Assembly: GCA_963664225.1 (NCBI GenBank)
Contig: OY760937.1
Location: 960,001-1,024,000 of the forward strand
Reading direction: 5' to 3'
Source: Verrucomicrobiia bacterium
Lineage (GTDB): Bacteria; Verrucomicrobiota; Verrucomicrobiia; Limisphaerales; UBA1319
DNA: 64,000 bases
Below the pieces are notes generated by a model that saw nothing but the letters and a program-made list of their open reading frames with translations, made no database searches and was not told where the DNA came from. Below are positions 30,381-38,832 of this stretch, in pieces. Positions within the stretch are counted from its first letter, which is position 1; each line of letters begins with the position of its first letter. The translations under genes and the position numbers were made by a program.

Positions 30381-33300
30381 TTAACCGTTCTTTCCGCAGC
30401 ATTGTTTGAATTTCTTGCCGCTGCCGCAGGGACATGGATCGTTGCGACCGACTTTGGGGCCCGTGCGCACCGGTTTGGCCTTGGCAATCGCATCGCTGGC
30501 CTCGGTGACCATGTCGCTGGCTTTGTTGGCTCCGGCGCTGTCGGGGGCAGCGGCTTCAGCCACCACCGACCCATAGGCGGTGGCTTGCTGGTGAACCATG
30601 CTCTTGGGCAGGTTCCGCAGGAATTGCTCAAACGCCAGCAGACTGGAGGCGCTCAGGAAGATGTTGCGGCAGATTTCCGTCTTGATGCTGACCATCAATT
30701 CCTCGAAGGACTTGAACGCCTCCGCCTTGTATTCGATGAGCGGATCCCGCTGGCCGTAAGCGCGCAATCCAATCGAGTTGCGCAGGCTGTCCATGTAGTA
30801 CAAATGCTCCTGCCAGAGTTTGTCGATCGCGCTGAGTATGGTGTAGCGCTCGACATTCTTGATGGCCAGGGGATTCTCAAAACTGGCCTTGAGCTCATAG
30901 GCGTCTGAAACGCTCTTCGAGATGAGCGTGGTCACGGCAAATTGCGCCGGGCTCAGTCCATCATACAGGGAACCCTCAACTGGGGCTTCCTGCGCGGAGC
31001 GGGCCGTTTGGACGATATCCGACTCGCGAAGGCCCACCGGGAACGTGGTGTTCACCCAATCGGAGATGCCACGGACACTCCATCCGTCCACATCAGCAGT
31101 CGGGGAGGAGAGCAGGGCGATTTTCTGGACGACCACTTCTTCCATGATGTCCATGAGGCGTTCGCGCACATCGTCGCTGCGAATGATCTCATTGCGGAAG
31201 CCGTAGATGACTTCGCGCTGCTTATTCATGACATCGTCGTATTCGAGCGTGCGCTTGCGAATTTGGAAGTTGTGCTGCTCGACGCGTTTCTGAGCCGTCT
31301 GGATCGAACGGTTCAGCAGCGGATGGGTCAGCTCCTGGCCTTCTTCCAGACCGACGCGCTCCATGACTTTGCTGATGCGGTCCGAACCAAACAGACGCAT
31401 CAGATCGTCTTCCAGCGAGATGAAGAAATGGGAGGAGCCGGGATCGCCCTGGCGCGCGCAACGTCCGCGCAACTGGCGGTCAATGCGTCGGGATTCGTGG
31501 CGCTCCGTGCCCATGACGTGCAAACCGCCCAGGTCCGCAACGCCTTCGCCCAATTTGATGTCGGTGCCGCGTCCTGCCATGTTGGTGGCAATGGTCACGG
31601 CGCCCCGATGTCCGGCCCGCGAGACAATCTCCGCTTCCTGCTCGTGGAACTTCGCGTTCAGCACGGAATGGACGACGCCCGCTTTTTTCAACAGCCGGGA
31701 AAGGTGCTCGCTGGTTTCCACCGAAATGGTGCCGACCAGGATCGGGCGTCCTTTTTGGTGAATATCCGTGATCTCCTTGGTGACCGCGTCAAATTTTTCG
31801 CGCTTGGTTTTGTAAACCGCGTCGTTTCCGTCTTTGCGCGCAACGGGCTTGTTGGTCGGAATGACCAGGACGCCCAGTTTATAAATATCGAAGAACTCGG
31901 TCGCTTCGGTCTCCGCCGTGCCCGTCATGCCCGCCAGTTTGGCGTATAGGCGGAAATAGTTCTGAATCGTGATGGTGGCCAGCGTCTGGGTTTCGCGCTC
32001 GATTTCGACCCCTTCCTTGGCTTCGACGGCCTGATGCAGACCATCGCTCCAGCGGCGACCCGTCATCAGGCGCCCGGTATGCTCATCGACGATGATGACT
32101 TTGTTTTCCTGGACAACGTATTCGACATCTTTTTCGTAGAGGCAATACGCCTTGAGCAGTTGGGAAATGACGTGAATCTTCTGCGATTTGGTCTCGTAAT
32201 CCGCCTGCATTTTGCTCTTCATTTCCACGCGTTTGCGTGGATCCTGCTCGGGCCCGGTGTCGATCTCATGAAAGGCCGTGGTCAGGTCGGGCAGCACAAA
32301 GCCATCCGGATCCTTCGGGTCCATCAAAGCGCGTCCTTTTTCAGTAAGGTCGGCTTCATGGGATTTCTCCTCGATGGCGAAGAACAACTCTTCTTTTTGC
32401 GCGTAGAGGGTCTTTTTGCTCTGATCCCCGTGCAACTCCAGTTCCGCGCTGTTCATGAGACGGAGGTTTTCAGGAACCTCCAGCACCTTCATCAGTGCGG
32501 TCAATTTGGGCGCGCCCAGCCGGACCTTGTAGAGCAGTAAACCGAGTTCGCGTTCGACTTCTTCGCGATGCGTGGGCTCGGAACCGTCCGTCGGGTGCAG
32601 TTTGTCGATGAGCTTCTGCGCTTCACTCAAATACCGGTTGCACAGACGCTCCTGGGTTTTGACGAGATTTTCGATCTCCGGTTTAAACTGCCCGTAAATG
32701 GCATTATCCGCGTTAACAACTGCGGGTCCGCTGATGATGAGCGGCGTGCGGGCTTCATCGATCAGGATCGAATCCACTTCGTCCACGATCGCGAAGTAAT
32801 GTCCCCGTTGCACTTGTTCCTCGGCGCGCACGGCCATGCCGTTGTCGCGCAGGTAATCGAAGCCAAATTCCGCGTTCGTTCCGTAGGTGATGTCGCAATT
32901 GTACTGTTCGCGTCTGACATCCGGCGACTGATCGTGAATGATGCAGCCCACGGTGAGTCCCAAAAATCTGTAAACTGCTCCCATCCATTCGCCGTCGCGG
33001 GCTGCCAGGTAATCGTTGACGGTCACCACATGCACACCCCGGCCGGTTAAGGCGTTCAAATACACCGGCAGCGTGGCCACCAATGTTTTGCCTTCACCGG
33101 TCGCCATTTCAGCAATGTGCCCAGTGTGAAGGGCGATGCCGCCGATCAACTGCACGTCGAATGGCACCATGTCCCAGACAATGGGATGCCCGCGCACAAT
33201 GACTTCCTTGCCCACGAGACGGCGGCAGGTGTCTTTGACCACCGCAAAGGCTTCAGGCAGGATTTCGTCGAGCTTCGCGGACAACTCGGCCAGATCTTCA

Positions 33301-33470
33301 ATGGCGCCAAGCTGTTGTTTCCATTCCGCCGTTTTTTGGCGCAAAGCATCGTCCGACAGCGACTTGATTGATTCTTCAAATTGTCGAATCTGCTCCACCC
33401 TCGGGCGGAGACGCTTGACCTCGCGATCGTTTTTAGTGCCGAAAATTTTCTTAAAAATGATTCCTATCAT
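30381..33470 (-). CDS. secA: Preprotein translocase ATPase SecA
   Basis: [39 protein letters not shown] and SEC-C motif [13 protein letters not shown]. Confidence 0.98.
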
Positions 33471-33617
33471 GATAATTTGGGATCACCCAAAGGCCACGCT
33501 AAGGGAATCCGGCAAAAGCGTCAAAGATTTTACAACGAATGAAATATGATGATGAGGAGGTGGGACAAAATGGCGCGTTGACGCATTTCATGCCGATTTT
33601 CCCATTCCTCGGGAGGC

Positions 33618-36600
33618 CTATGGACTGCTTTTGGGGTCCGGCGCCCGCGTGCGGGGTTTGGCTGCGCGATGAATTCGCAGCGAGAAGCCGTGCCCGTTTT
33701 CGTAGGGTTCCACGGTTGCGCTGACCTCAAGCACGGGGTAACGCACGGTGACCAGGCCGTAGCTGCGGTAGGTGGGGGCGAACAATTCCGTTTCCACCAT
33801 CCCGGTCCAATCGGTGAGGGTGAGGAATTTCATCGGTTCCCCGGTGATCTGGTGGTGGAGACGCTGTTCAATGACCAGGCCGCATACGACGACCGTCTCG
33901 CCGGGATAGTTTCCCAGCCGTGAGATGGGACAATAGGTTTCCCAGGCCACGGTGTCATAGATTTCCAGGGGATGGCCGGAAACGGTGAACCCCAGCAGGT
34001 CAGTTTCCCATTCGAGTTTTTCGTGGTGTCCCGGTTCCTGGAGTGGCACGGGAAAAAGTGTCTTTTCATTGTGTGGTTCGGGGAAAAGCCAGCCCTGGCC
34101 GGGTTCTGTGCCTGCCTCAAAAAACCTGCGCAACCGTTGGAACTCCCAGAATTGTGCCGTCCGGGTATCTCCAAAGAGATCAAAGGCGCCCACGCGAATG
34201 AGCGCATCCATTTCCTCGACCAGGGGTTGGACACGCTTGTAGAAGTCCCGCAGGGACGTGAACGGGGTGTGATGCCGCTCATTCAGCAATCGTTCAATCG
34301 TCCGGTTGGTCAGTCCCTTCACGCGGGTGACGGGAACGCGGATCGCCTGTTTTTTGGTTTCCGGATTGGTGGTGCAGACCTGAAACATGGGTCCCGGCTC
34401 ATTGACGAATGGCGGCAGGAGAGGGATGCCCAGTCGGTGGCATTCCAGGACATACACCAGCGGATGGTAAAAACCCTTCCCGTTGGAAAGGACGGCGGCC
34501 ATGAATTCGGCGGGGTAATTTTGTTTGATCCAGGCCGACTGCCAGGCTTCCACACCGTAGGCCACGCTGTGCGCCTTGCAGAAGGCATAACCGGCGAACC
34601 CGGCCACTGATTTCCAGACTTCCTCGATGGCGCTTTCCGGACGACCAAGGCGGCGGGCGGAAACGAAAAATTCTCCTTTGATCTGCTCCATCACGGGCAG
34701 GTTGTATTTGGCCAGCGCGCGGCGGAGAACATCGGCGCGTCCCGGAGGCAATCCGGCAAAGGCCTCGCAGATCTGTAAAATGTGCTCCTCATAAACCACC
34801 AGTCCGTAGGTGTCTTTGAGACAGGGTTCCAATGAGGGGTGGGGATAGGTTACGGGTTCCCGGCCTTGATAGCGGCGGACGAAGTTGAGTTTGTTATTTT
34901 CATTGGCCGCGCCGGGCCGGATCACGCTGACGATGGCGACCAGGCCATCGATTTCATGCACGTTGGATTGGCGGCACAGCCCAATCATGGCCGGGCTTTC
35001 GATGTGATGCACGGCGCGCGCGCCGCCGCTGGCGATCAGTTTCCACACTTGTGGATCAGTCCACGGCTCGAGCTGGTCGAGGTGCAGTTCAATGCCGCGC
35101 GCGGAAAGCATTTCGCGGACATCCCGCATCACGGCCAGTCCGCCTTGGGCAAGAATATCCATTTTGATCAGTCCGATCGCTTCCACGGCATCCATGTCGA
35201 AATGGGTGGTCGGATACCCCTTATTGGAAGGAAACGTCGGCGTGAGTTCGCACATGGGCTGACGGGAGAGAACCACACCGCAGGGGTGCATTTTGGGATG
35301 GCGCGGAAAGCCGTCGAGGAACTCCGCCATGCGCAGGGCGGAGCGGTAGGGTTCCTCGGTCAGCGGGGCATCCTGGCACTCCAGGCTTTGCGTCACGGCA
35401 TTCTCGATGCCCTGCACGCGTCCGAACCAGGGGAAGTGTTCCGTGAAGCGGCGGATTTGGAATTCAGACACGCCAAGCACTTTTCCGACATCCGCCACGG
35501 CGCTGCGGGCTTGAAACGTGGAAAAGCCTCCAACGACCGCAGCATGAGAAGGCCCGTATCTCTTGAAGATCAGGTCAATGACATCGTCTTTGCGGTCATG
35601 CGGAAAATCCAGGTCGATATCGGGCAATTTGTTCAACTGCATCCGTTCCCGGTTGAGGAAACGCCGGAAGTAGAGGTTGAAGCGGATCGGGCAGACCCCG
35701 CTGATTTCCAGGCAATAACAGACCAAAGAATCGGCGGCGCTGCCGCGGGTGATCCACTCGATATTCTGCCGACGGCACTCCTGCAAAAGATCCCAGACGG
35801 CGAGGAAATAGGGTTCGTAGCCGACTTCGGCAATGAGGGCCAGTTCCTCCTCGACCTGGGGCTGGACCTGCGCGAAGCGGCTGGGGTAGCGGCGGCGCAG
35901 ACCCTCCAGGGCAATGCGCCGCAGAAACGCGCGGGCCGACGAGCCGTCCGGCGGCGTGAAATCCGGGAATTGCGGTTTGCCCAGCGGCATTTCAAACGAG
36001 CAGCGTTGCGCGATTTCCCGCGTCTGGTCCAGCAGTCGGGGCTGATTGCCAAAAAGGGCGCGCCATTGCGCCGGGGAATGAAAATGAAAATCTCCAGTCA
36101 ATTGTTTGCCGGGATGTTCCTGGCGCAAAAGGGTGCGCGTGCGGATGCTTTGGACAACATCGTATTTCCAACGGTCTTCCGGTGTCGCGTAATGGATGGG
36201 GACCATGGCGATTTGCGGAATCCCGGTTTGCGGGGCGGGCAGGGAACGGCCGTATGGGGGGGGAACGGCCTGATAGAAACGACCCGGAAAAAGCGGGGCG
36301 AGTTTGAGGTTCGAACTTGCGGCCAGGAGCCCGTTGGTGATGCCATCCAGATCGGTCATGGCGCGCGGACGTTGCTGGCGTTGAATGACGGCGTCGCCAT
36401 CGTCCTCCACGGACTGCGGAATGGCAGAGAGAATCTGGCACAGGTTGCGATAACCTTCCGGGTTTTGCACGTAGAGGCACACGGGCGCGCCATCGACAAT
36501 GATCTCGGAACCGATGATGGGTTGGATCCCGGCTTTTTTGGCGGCGGCATGGAATGAAACCGCCCCGTGGAGGTTGCCCGTGTCGGTGATGGCAATCGCT

Positions 36601-37964
36601 GGCATTTCATGTTTTTGGGCCAGTTCGACAATGGCCCCCACGGACAGCGTGGAGTTTAAAAAGGAATAAAAACTGCGAGCCCGCAGGGGCACGGGTATGG
36701 TGTTTAGACCGGTGCGGATGAGAATTTGGAGACCCGGGGTCGGGGTTTCTTTTGGCGGCAGACGCGAAGCCAGCGTCCGGGTTTGGGCCGGATTCAATCC
36801 AGGGCGCAGAATCAGATCGTGGCCGCGCATCACAATTTCCTGGCAATGTGATTCGCGGCGCAGGGTGTCGATGGCAGCCGCCAGCCGCCGCTGGGCGTCG
36901 AGCTTTTGCGCGGAGCGGTCGAGGCAAAGTTCAATGCGAAAAACACCGTCATACACATTGGAAAACCGCAGACAAACCATGCGCAGGCTGACGCGGCGTT
37001 TCCAGGCCTGGCGGAGCAGGGGAGGAATCCGGCTGTAAAGATCCGTTTCCAGGTCCGTGGGTTCGGGCAGGCTCTCGCCGGACTGGTCTTCGGACATGTC
37101 GTTGTAACGGACTTTGACGGTAACCGTGCGAATGCTTTTGCCCTCGGCGCGAACCGTTGCCATGAGCTGGTCGGCCATGCGTCGCAGGATGGCTTGAATG
37201 TATTCCTCGTCGGTGGTGTCGGCGGAGAAGGTTTCCTGTTTGCTGTAGGACTTGGCCGGGGCGCGGACGGGAATGATGGGCCGCTCGTCCAGGCCGTTGG
37301 CGTATTGATGGAGGGTGTGGGCCGCGCCGTCCATGAGCAGTTCCAGGGCGTCGATCGGGGTGGCGGCGATCTGTCCGATGCGGGTCAAGCCGGCCGCATT
37401 GAGGCGAAGGGCGGTTTTGGGACCCACGCCCGGAAGCCAGTGATTGGCCAGGGGTTGCAGGAATGATTTTTCGCAGCCGGGAAGAACGGAGGTAAACGCA
37501 GCGGGCTTGTTGAGTTTGGAGGCGATCTGGCTGACCAGTTTATTGGAGGCAATGCCTTCGCTGACGGTGATCTTCAGGGATTGCCGGATGGCCTGCCGGA
37601 TGGTTTCGGCGACATCGACCGGCGGTTTGCGTCCGCCACTCAAATCAAAATAGCCCTCGTCAATCGAGCAAATCTCGACGTCGGGGGTGAAGTCGTAGGC
37701 GTAACTGAACATCCAGCGGGAGAACTGCTCGTATTTCTCGAAATCGCCCGGCAGGACGATGAGTTTGGGACAGAGCTTGCGGGCGCGCACCGTGGGCATG
37801 GGAGTGTAAACACCCATCTTCCGCGCTTCATACGAGGCGGAGGCGATGATCCCCCGCTTCTCGCCACCCACCGCCACCGCCTTGCCCCGCAGCCTGGGAT
37901 CGGAGGCTTGCTCGACCGAGGCGAAAAACGCATCGGCATCCAGATGGATGATGTCGCGGGGCAT
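33618..37964 (-). CDS. Fused Y-family DNA polymerase (DinB/Pol IV-like) and error-prone C-family polymerase DnaE2 (1448 aa)
   Basis: Residues ~1-385: HLDADAFFASVE, ASYEAR, SIDEGY, KLVSQIASKLNKP, GVGPKT and a little-finger domain. Pro-rich linker. Residues ~423-1448: PHP domain, RGSAADSLVCY, LPDIDLDF, KMDIL, YAFCKAH, HhH and OB fold. Confidence 0.92.
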   Translation of the reverse strand: MPRDIIHLDADAFFASVEQASDPRLRGKAVAVGGEKRGIIASASYEARKMGVYTPMPTVRARKLCPKLIVLPGDFEKYEQFSRWMFSYAYDFTPDVEICSIDEGYFDLSGGRKPPVDVAETIRQAIRQSLKITVSEGIASNKLVSQIASKLNKPAAFTSVLPGCEKSFLQPLANHWLPGVGPKTALRLNAAGLTRIGQIAATPIDALELLMDGAAHTLHQYANGLDERPIIPVRAPAKSYSKQETFSADTTDEEYIQAILRRMADQLMATVRAEGKSIRTVTVKVRYNDMSEDQSGESLPEPTDLETDLYSRIPPLLRQAWKRRVSLRMVCLRFSNVYDGVFRIELCLDRSAQKLDAQRRLAAAIDTLRRESHCQEIVMRGHDLILRPGLNPAQTRTLASRLPPKETPTPGLQILIRTGLNTIPVPLRARSFYSFLNSTLSVGAIVELAQKHEMPAIAITDTGNLHGAVSFHAAAKKAGIQPIIGSEIIVDGAPVCLYVQNPEGYRNLCQILSAIPQSVEDDGDAVIQRQQRPRAMTDLDGITNGLLAASSNLKLAPLFPGRFYQAVPPPYGRSLPAPQTGIPQIAMVPIHYATPEDRWKYDVVQSIRTRTLLRQEHPGKQLTGDFHFHSPAQWRALFGNQPRLLDQTREIAQRCSFEMPLGKPQFPDFTPPDGSSARAFLRRIALEGLRRRYPSRFAQVQPQVEEELALIAEVGYEPYFLAVWDLLQECRRQNIEWITRGSAADSLVCYCLEISGVCPIRFNLYFRRFLNRERMQLNKLPDIDLDFPHDRKDDVIDLIFKRYGPSHAAVVGGFSTFQARSAVADVGKVLGVSEFQIRRFTEHFPWFGRVQGIENAVTQSLECQDAPLTEEPYRSALRMAEFLDGFPRHPKMHPCGVVLSRQPMCELTPTFPSNKGYPTTHFDMDAVEAIGLIKMDILAQGGLAVMRDVREMLSARGIELHLDQLEPWTDPQVWKLIASGGARAVHHIESPAMIGLCRQSNVHEIDGLVAIVSVIRPGAANENNKLNFVRRYQGREPVTYPHPSLEPCLKDTYGLVVYEEHILQICEAFAGLPPGRADVLRRALAKYNLPVMEQIKGEFFVSARRLGRPESAIEEVWKSVAGFAGYAFCKAHSVAYGVEAWQSAWIKQNYPAEFMAAVLSNGKGFYHPLVYVLECHRLGIPLLPPFVNEPGPMFQVCTTNPETKKQAIRVPVTRVKGLTNRTIERLLNERHHTPFTSLRDFYKRVQPLVEEMDALIRVGAFDLFGDTRTAQFWEFQRLRRFFEAGTEPGQGWLFPEPHNEKTLFPVPLQEPGHHEKLEWETDLLGFTVSGHPLEIYDTVAWETYCPISRLGNYPGETVVVCGLVIEQRLHHQITGEPMKFLTLTDWTGMVETELFAPTYRSYGLVTVRYPVLEVSATVEPYENGHGFSLRIHRAAKPRTRAPDPKSSP

Positions 37965-38015
37965 GACTGGGAATTGGAGTGCGCTCGTACAAGACGCTGC
38001 CTGGAATAAGGCGGA

Positions 38016-38636
38016 TTATTTTCGCTTGCGGACCAACGCGATCATCACACCCTGAATGACCAGTTCGCCGACGGGAAAGAGCTTGGGAAAAAGCGGGTTT
38101 TCCGCCCTGAGAAACGGACGTCCATTCTCGATGGCAAAAGTTTTCAGCGTGCTTTCGTTATCGATCAGCGCGGCCACCACATCGCCCGGGCGGGGGGTGA
38201 CCCCGTGTTCGAGAACCACCAGGTCGCCATCCATGATATGACGGCCGATCATCGATTCGCCCCGGACTTCCAGGGCGAAGGTGCGCGCCGTGGGTTTGAT
38301 CCCCAGACTTTCGACATCAATGGACACGCAGCCCGCCGGTTCCTGGCGGCGGTCGGCGGCAAACCCCGCCGGGATGGTGCCATACAGGGGAATGTCGGCA
38401 ATGGGACGGCGCAGGCGTTGGAGCGGAGAGGTGGAGCGCAGGGAACGGGCCTGGCGCGGTTGACCTTCGAGAAAGCCTTTGCGGCGCAGCGCGCGGACAT
38501 GGTCGGCGGCTGCAGTCATGCTGCGAAATCTGAAATGCTCCGCAATCTCCCGCAGCGAGGGCGGGACGCCCTGGGCTTGCTGGCTGGACACAATGAAGTC
38601 CAGCACTTGCTGCTGTCGGCTGGTTAAATCACGCAT
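38016..38636 (-). CDS. lexA: SOS repressor LexA
   Basis: LTSRQQQVLDFI, PPSLREIA, cleavage site IPAG, catalytic GESM and TLK. ATG 38636 preferred. Confidence 0.95.
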   Translation of the reverse strand: MRDLTSRQQQVLDFIVSSQQAQGVPPSLREIAEHFRFRSMTAAADHVRALRRKGFLEGQPRQARSLRSTSPLQRLRRPIADIPLYGTIPAGFAADRRQEPAGCVSIDVESLGIKPTARTFALEVRGESMIGRHIMDGDLVVLEHGVTPRPGDVVAALIDNESTLKTFAIENGRPFLRAENPLFPKLFPVGELVIQGVMIALVRKRK

Positions 38637-38655
38637 AACACACGGTTTTTGAAAC

Positions 38656-38673
38656 ACTGTTCAAATAAACAGT
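38656..38673. promoter_or_regulatory. LexA (SOS) box ACTGTTCAAATAAACAGT
   Basis: Palindromic ACTGTT-N6-AACAGT about 20 bp upstream of lexA; one mismatch from the reported Verrucomicrobia motif TGTTC-N4-GAACA. Confidence 0.75.
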
Positions 38674-38799
38674 ATTCCTTTGCCCCTGCCCGTCAACTCA
38701 CAAACAGGGAAAAAACGAAAAGTCGTGTTCTGGGATTCTATAAGCCATCCGGTTAACTTCAGAAGTGATTGGATTGCAGGCGGTCTCGCGATCGTAACG

Positions 38800-38832
38800 A
38801 AAAACAAAAAAAGCGCCCTTTTCGGGGGCGCT
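38800..38832 (-). terminator. Rho-independent terminator of the CTN-repeat peptide gene
   Basis: Minus strand reads AGCGCCC-CCGAAAA-GGGCGCT followed by TTTTTTGTTTTT, 25 bp after the stop codon. Confidence 0.85.

Follow-up and report, generated by a model that had tools for sequence, protein, structure and literature searches.

Can two DNA polymerases of different families be carried by one polypeptide, and would such a protein serve in DNA damage tolerance? The question is raised by a gene in a 64,000-nucleotide stretch of DNA (the window; positions 960,001 to 1,024,000 of contig OY760937.1, assembly GCA_963664225.1) from a soil-type Verrucomicrobia bacterium. The gene sits in the DNA-damage (lexA) operon and encodes a Y-family polymerase followed in frame by a C-family polymerase. 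The initial annotation had described an uninterrupted open reading frame (ORF) of 1448 codons 51 bp downstream of lexA, and both the frame and the lexA models agree with this. The fusion gene (33618..37964; like all features of this operon, on the minus strand) starts with ATG and runs through 1448 codons to its stop with no internal stop, and a 51-bp spacer (37965..38015) separates it from lexA. The single-frame two-polymerase fusion is real and conserved, and no artefact. We consider its product to be probably a damage-inducible single-chain translesion enzyme with two polymerases, of the PolY–DnaE2B–RecA type but with the polymerases joined.

The stronger argument that the fusion is genuine is the retention of the same single frame across relatives. 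A stop in the linker of close homologs had been named beforehand as the sign of an artefact; instead, a single frame spanning the junction was present in 19 of 40 same-order genomes (~1400–1630 aa, 55–70% identity), and two further genomes of the order (G012 and G031) carried high-identity pieces of the fusion on separate contigs. A search with the junction region (residues 250–650) matched 1287 protein clusters with source names in Verrucomicrobia, Limisphaerales and Pedosphaera. All of the best 120 of these 1287 matches contained IMS_C, PHP and DNA_pol3_alpha, and 117 of the 120 also contained IMS; the database labels on fusion proteins read ‘DNA polymerase III subunit alpha’ or ‘DNA polymerase IV’. 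Scanning named loci, with one genome per species, gave 80 loci, in 49 of which the PolY and DnaE matches shared one frame (at least 1300 aa in 44), mostly in Verrucomicrobiota. Record titles of the fused loci include Limisphaera, Pedosphaera, Chthoniobacteraceae, Terrimicrobiaceae, Prosthecobacter, Opitutaceae and others, the labels of a few bins being implausible. Among 401 evenly sampled genomes of the phylum the fusion occurred in 4, of which 2 lie outside the order and are 51–52% identical over the full length. The weaker argument comes from sequence support over the linker: Logan contigs of runs X1 (25,510 nt) and X3 (33,944 nt), from two studies, covered 33500–38800 with 0 differences and 0 gaps, and one of the two may be the source of the assembly itself. 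Because the same fusion has been kept in many relatives, the joined polymerases very probably work as one unit.

The N-terminal half (residues 1–345; 36930..37964) has the domains, carboxylates and aromatic steric gate by which a DinB-type enzyme (DNA polymerase IV) is recognised, and is classed as such from its sequence. Pfam placed IMS at residues 8–150 (E 5.8e-45, 153.3 bits, cut-off 23.2) and IMS_C at 238–337 (68.8 bits, cut-off 20.7), the NF002677 model (DNA polymerase IV) scored 257.7 against a cut-off of 256, and the best solved match was DNA polymerase IV (7yll_A, E 1.9e-57). The motifs reported in the initial annotation are in place, DADAFF at residues 9–14 and SIDEGY at 100–105. All 62 aligned fusions share D9, D11, F13, D102 and E103, and no fewer than 90% share F14; F13 and F14 occupy the steric-gate position. 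We take these carboxylates and the gate to correspond to D8, D103, E104 and F13 of E. coli.

Between the little finger and the linker stands a RecA-N-terminus-like motif (residues 350–387; 36804..36917), a helix followed by a conserved RGHDxxLR strand. Its pattern, L-x3-[VI]-x2-[LI]-x4-G-x2-[VI]-[VM]-R-G-x-D, mirrors the N-terminus of the only RecA in the genome, and a helix was predicted at 350–371. In complex prediction, run with our own alignment, residues 335–400 with the RecA core scored 0.79 against 0.01 for the best of 3 controls, with the interface at 350–385, at least 61% of the contacts in agreement between runs and a partner predicted local distance difference test (pLDDT) of at least 61. 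Of 157 solved complexes, 116 reached the mark used for this score, as did 2 of 215 mismatched pairs. The prediction supports binding of RecA by residues 350–387, and the presence of the motif suggests that the third partner is RecA rather than ImuA. Downstream of it lies a variable linker (residues 388–425; 36690..36803) rich in Ala, Pro and Arg. Measured after RGHDxxLR in 104 fusions, the linker is 24–130 aa long, with a median of 35. A fold model of residues 1–700, used solely for the 350–371 helix and the low-confidence linker, gave pLDDT below 50 over residues 377–419, in keeping with a disordered tether.

The C-terminal half is, by its sequence, a C-family polymerase of the DnaE type, with PHP, DNA_pol3_alpha, finger and helix-hairpin-helix domains and the Asp triad. 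PHP matched at residues 427–549, DNA_pol3_alpha at 680–939 (E 3.5e-69), the finger domain at 943–1104 and HHH_6 at 1179–1269 (34158..34430). The best solved match was Thermus Pol III alpha (2hpi, E 9.7e-126); no solved chain was found that covers both halves of the fusion. The core (palm, thumb and fingers; residues 680–1104, 34653..35927) carries PDIDLDF at 781–787 and KMDIL at 934–938, again as first reported. D782, D784, D786 and D936 are invariant in the 62 aligned fusions, and D782, D784 and D936 in all 49 rows of an alignment of five groups; the triad is that listed for E. coli as D401/D403/D555 in the supplement of PMC12926913, as far as that supplement was covered.

Proofreading appears to have been lost. 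The initial annotation had noted a degenerate PHP site with RAR in place of HxH, and residues 426–431 indeed read PLRARS, RAR standing where DnaE1 carries HxH. Nine PHP metal-ligand positions, taken from the covered part of the same supplement, are invariant in seven DnaE1 references; the window fusion keeps 2 of them (E487 and H591) and members of the fusion group at most 3. With only 2 of the nine ligands left, the PHP exonuclease of this domain (residues 426–700; 35865..36689) is predicted to be dead. A candidate internal beta-clamp-binding motif, GQGWLF (residues 1289–1294; 34083..34100), falls exactly on the internal clamp motif GQxSLF when aligned with DnaE1 proteins, and at least 90% of 62 fusions retain its Q1290 and L1293. 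The OB-like region that follows (residues ~1320–1432; 33669..34007) gave no separate Pfam OB match, and no tau-binding C-terminal domain of the DnaE1 type comes after it.

What kind of DnaE is this half? A replicative DnaE1 was rejected: the NF004226 score (655 bits) fell short of the cut-off of 1002, 2 of 9 PHP ligands are present, and the last matched position is 1057 in a model of 1146, so that the DnaE1-type C-terminal domain is missing. The initial annotation had called this half DnaE2; the C-family assignment stood, whereas assignment to canonical DnaE2 (ImuC) did not. On NF004225 (error-prone DNA polymerase) the fusion scored 541 bits against a cut-off of 939, compared with 1134–1366 for the DnaE2 of four same-order relatives. 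The four canonical DnaE2 proteins from relatives all end in S-x-D-[FS]-H. No tail of the S-x-D-F-H type was found in the window fusion, 2 other fusions or 7 near relatives; the window fusion ends in ...KPRTRAPDPKSSP, and the absence of an SRDF-type tail reported earlier was thus borne out. In a quick, unrooted IQ-TREE maximum likelihood tree of 49 rows, from which three fusions had been dropped by our motif cut, the fusion C-halves formed one clade with 100% support. This clade joins standalone P0126/P0128, then other ~1000-aa proteins that lack the C-terminal domain, and is separate both from four NF004225-positive references and from DnaE1.

Partners of a canonical DnaE2 were likewise not found in the genome. 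The sole IMS-bearing genes are the fusion and a separate dinB, both with active-type matches, so that no imuB was recognised. As to imuA, whose absence had been claimed, PF00154 gave one RecA and a 585-aa two-domain KaiC-like ORF, with no ImuA-specific model run. Canonical DnaE2 itself occurs in 4 of 41 genomes and in 0 of those with a fused or high-identity copy; the 41 genomes are kin, so that these counts do not amount to a statistical test. Some same-order genomes that lack the fusion, among them G040, carry canonical DnaE2 (L037:3421-6762) after a ~500-aa weak Y-family homolog (L037:2124-3623; 23% identity) that is presumably ImuB. In none of the 41 genomes were both systems seen together.

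The promoter region suggests how the operon is controlled. lexA (38016..38636) matches LexA_DNA_bind, Peptidase_S24 and TIGR00498 (141.9 bits, cut-off 110.95) and TIGR00498 recognised no second lexA in the genome. The cleavage residues of lexA are present (numbering of the printed frame): Ala-Gly in PAGF (96), Ser in GESM (133) and Lys in TLKT (170). The longest frame would begin at GTG 38657, inside the operator palindrome, and the Pfam LexA_DNA_bind match begins at ATG 38636, which is the more likely start. Upstream lies a putative LexA box, ACTGTTTATTTGAACAGT (38656..38673), a palindrome of the CTGT-N8-ACAG type (ACTGT-N8-ACAGT), which appears to resemble a LexA motif published for Verrucomicrobia. 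It overlaps a -10-like TACTGT (38669-38674), and a -35-like TTGACG (38691..38696) stands 16 nt before that element. The TTGACG hexamer was unlisted by a consensus scan; in most of the 18 upstream regions of related lexA genes, a TTGAC element precedes the box at the same place. An equivalent palindrome was seen by eye in all 18 of these regions and by a strict script in 17, and its arms co-vary among relatives (ACCGT..ACGGT, ACTAT..ATAGT, ACTGG..CCAGT).

Linkage to lexA is conserved as well, which bears out the second thing that the initial annotation had proposed to check. Of 20 same-order relatives, 17 have lexA immediately in front of the fusion, as do 39 of the 43 named fused loci with enough upstream sequence, and the fusions without adjacent lexA in G005 and G018 have a box of their own in front. 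No terminator-like site was found on the minus strand of the 51-bp spacer. lexA and the fusion thus appear to be transcribed together from a promoter that the box overlaps, and induction of the operon by damage would be expected. A genome-wide scan of the 5.78-Mb genome, with a matrix built from 19 lexA-operon boxes (lexA promoters only), found the lexA–fusion box (27.5 bits) as the sole site of at least 20 bits. Beyond lexA one site reached 18 bits, inside typA/bipA, and the next was at lnt; recA had no site among the top 30, and counts at 16 bits or less did not exceed a reversed-sequence control, so that the matrix defines no wider regulon. LexA may control little beyond its own operon, or other operators may differ from the matrix.

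Several known systems resemble this arrangement. According to the covered parts of two papers, the PolY–DnaE2B–RecA mutasome predicted in Bacteroidetes (Timinskas et al. 2026, PMC12926913; first noted in 2019, PMC6511836) comprises an active PolY with a RecA-NT motif and a non-canonical DnaE2, often lexA-linked. It shares with the fusion its module composition and the lack of ImuA, ImuB and ImuB-C; the polymerases are separate genes and proteins there and one polypeptide here. The mark of DnaE2B is found in the fusion genome, namely no ImuA or ImuB (ImuA searched without a specific model) and a PolY with a RecA-NT-like motif. On the best reading of the sequence, the protein would therefore be filed as a covalent form of the PolY–DnaE2B–RecA type, by module composition rather than tree placement, and not as an ImuABC cassette. 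In the ImuA–ImuB–DnaE2 (ImuC) system, as the covered parts of PMC6511836 and PMC12926913 describe it, the Y-family member ImuB is a non-catalytic adaptor. That system is similarly LexA-linked and combines a Y-family fold, a proofreading-less DnaE paralog without the C-terminal domain and a RecA-type partner; it differs in that ImuB is dead and carries ImuB-C and that ImuA is a RecA paralog, whereas the Y-family site of the fusion is intact. E. coli Pol V (UmuD'2C-RecA) is, in the covered part of PMC6511836, an SOS-induced Y-family polymerase with a RecA contact of the RecA-NT type; Pol V lacks a C-family partner, and the fusion system lacks UmuD'.

A fused form is not mentioned in the main texts of PMC6511836 and PMC12926913, and the covered part of the genome list in PMC12926913 holds 9 Verrucomicrobia genomes, none of a fusion-bearing genus (no Limisphaera, no Pedosphaera). 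We found no published description of the fusion in the literature searched, which included term searches of PMC3919608 and PMC3765255 and did not extend to Erill et al. 2016 (PMC4951493), on the LexA motif of Verrucomicrobia.

The nearest unfused relatives of the C-half occur in split polY–dnaE operons. A separate polY (frame ~390–470 aa, IMS plus IMS_C) lies directly upstream of a standalone C-half homolog in 8 of the 80 named loci (L043, L044, L094, L099, L103, L109, L111 and L116), whose record titles name Planctomycetota, Acidobacteriota and Verrucomicrobia subdivision 6; these taxon labels come from metagenome-assembled genomes and may be wrong. These operons share with the fusion locus the order S24/LexA, polY, dnaE, and their products are 41–58% (PolY) and ~38–86% (DnaE) identical to the fused halves; they differ in having two genes and, at four loci, a small intervening ORF. 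The fusion therefore joins genes that are operon partners elsewhere and, judged by this gene order, is a Rosetta-stone fusion of PolY and DnaE halves. This gene adjacency, together with the lack of canonical DnaE2 in genomes with a fused or high-identity copy, speaks for a functional coupling of the two halves. An S24 gene stands in front of polY in 2 of the 8 split loci. In the Planctomycetota-labelled split operons (L111:4116-4574 and L116:2972-3385) the upstream gene has an S24 domain only (frames of 138–153 aa) and is UmuD-like rather than LexA. The small ORF between polY and dnaE (L043:5507-5956, L044:5608-5976, L094:5189-5725 and L116:5361-5951) has 123–197 aa and no Pfam match, and could encode a standalone ImuB-C-like adaptor.

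How might the fusion work? Upon DNA damage, activated RecA would drive LexA self-cleavage and the operon would be de-repressed. The fusion would then dock on RecA via residues 350–387 and on the beta clamp via GQGWLF. The Y-family module would insert opposite the lesion, the proofreading-less DnaE module, kept in reach by the tether, would extend the distorted terminus, and the replicase would return after extension. Such an inserter/extender hand-off had been proposed in the initial annotation, whose interpretation was supported in its covalent two-polymerase fusion and lexA linkage and had missed the RecA-like motif, the promoter box and GQGWLF. In mean identity to 59 distant fusions, the Y-family core (74.5%) and the C-family core (residues 701–1104; 74.3%) were nearly equal, against 51.7% for PHP and 9.6% for the linker. 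Equal purifying selection on the two cores suggests that the most likely mechanism is one in which both active sites are used, in sequence. In eukaryotes, Rev1/Pol zeta brings an inserter and an extender together in one assembly, non-covalently and with a B-family extender; the fusion has the inserter–extender idea in common with it, the polymerase families being unrelated. A more specific version, in which the two sites act one after the other on a single primer terminus while docked on RecA and the clamp, as a bacterial counterpart of Rev1/Pol zeta, with LexA perhaps reduced to serving this operon alone, given that the genome scan found no further strong box, is offered tentatively and may well prove wrong.

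Three other explanations were weighed against a two-polymerase translesion enzyme. The Y-family module might be an ImuB-like scaffold that recruits RecA and the clamp and positions DnaE, which would do all the synthesis, the Y-family catalytic residues being unused in bypass. This has a precedent in the non-catalytic adaptor ImuB of ImuA–ImuB–DnaE2 (PMC6511836, PMC12926913, in the parts covered), and the RecA-like motif is indeed located in the Y-family part. ImuB-type proteins, however, have lost their catalytic residues according to the same parts of these papers, whereas D9, D11, D102 and E103 of the fusion are invariant in 62 of 62, F13/F14 are kept, the NF002677 cut-off is reached and the Y-family core is conserved as much as the DnaE core. 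We therefore regard a pure scaffold as unlikely.

It is also conceivable that fusion does no more than secure 1:1 synthesis, the two enzymes acting independently, perhaps after cleavage of the linker or on different lesions. The unconserved linker of variable length would fit such co-expression, as would the adjacent unfused genes in other phyla and the few close relatives with standalone genes. Against it, the fused state has been kept over several families at 51–70% identity, and a separate dinB is present in the genome anyway. An internal start is also unlikely, since 90 of 104 fusions have no Met in the 15 residues that precede PHP. Taken together, these points leave independent action quite improbable. 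That an assembly error or strain-specific read-through joined two genes has next to no chance of being right, given identical contigs from two studies and a frame that recurs in over 100 protein clusters and in genomes by the dozen.

Several points weigh against the translesion-enzyme reading that we prefer. The fusion is missing from 19 of the 40 same-order genomes, and split forms exist, both as standalone genes of the P0125/P0126 type and as relatives divided near residue 966, so that the two halves need not be covalently joined. That LexA binds the box is deduced from conservation. Inspection of the Y-family tail by eye revealed no canonical clamp motif (Qxx[LM]xF). The RecA complex may pass because it is like the solved RecA–RecA interface rather than because this copy binds, and the fold model of residues 1–700 is mediocre (mean pLDDT 69.3, predicted template modelling score 0.45), with a poorly modelled palm.

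The composition and cooperation of non-canonical DnaE2 mutasomes have so far been addressed from gene neighbourhood and structure prediction. The fusion offers a one-gene system of fixed stoichiometry in which to dissect the long-debated polymerase hand-off at a lesion, and a cultured carrier appears to exist, since the record title of L087 names a Limisphaera isolate.

The locus lies in an ordinary chromosomal context, as judged from its neighbours: secA downstream (30381-33470) and a pseudouridine synthase and a SurA-like gene upstream. Elsewhere the genome encodes a standalone DinB (G000:C1:2398448-2399383; 411-aa frame, 40% identical to the fused Y-family part) and a separate 1215-aa DnaE (G000:C1:1998470-2001109) that has a complete HLHLH PHP start and clusters with DnaE1. 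With the fusion, the genome thus carries a third, additional set of polymerase domains.

The boundary between DNA_pol3_alpha and finger, at residue ~966 (window position ~35067), is an insertion hot-spot in relatives, with 23–53 extra residues. In G036 (L025 and L125) the gene is divided near 966 into two ORFs on different contigs, and P0096 (1015 aa, on a 398-kb contig) and the C-pieces P0140 and P0247 likewise end or start near this residue. A split intein at this site was considered and rejected, no insert of intein size having been seen: in G025 (L026 and L126) the contigs simply overlap, and in G036 the N-piece ends 6 residues past the break, while the ~25 additional residues of the C-piece are too few for an intein. 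Finally, a C-half homolog at L091:2218-6426 has a 370-aa N-terminal extension with no Pfam match and no tblastn match to the PolY half, which may be a different or very divergent fused partner.

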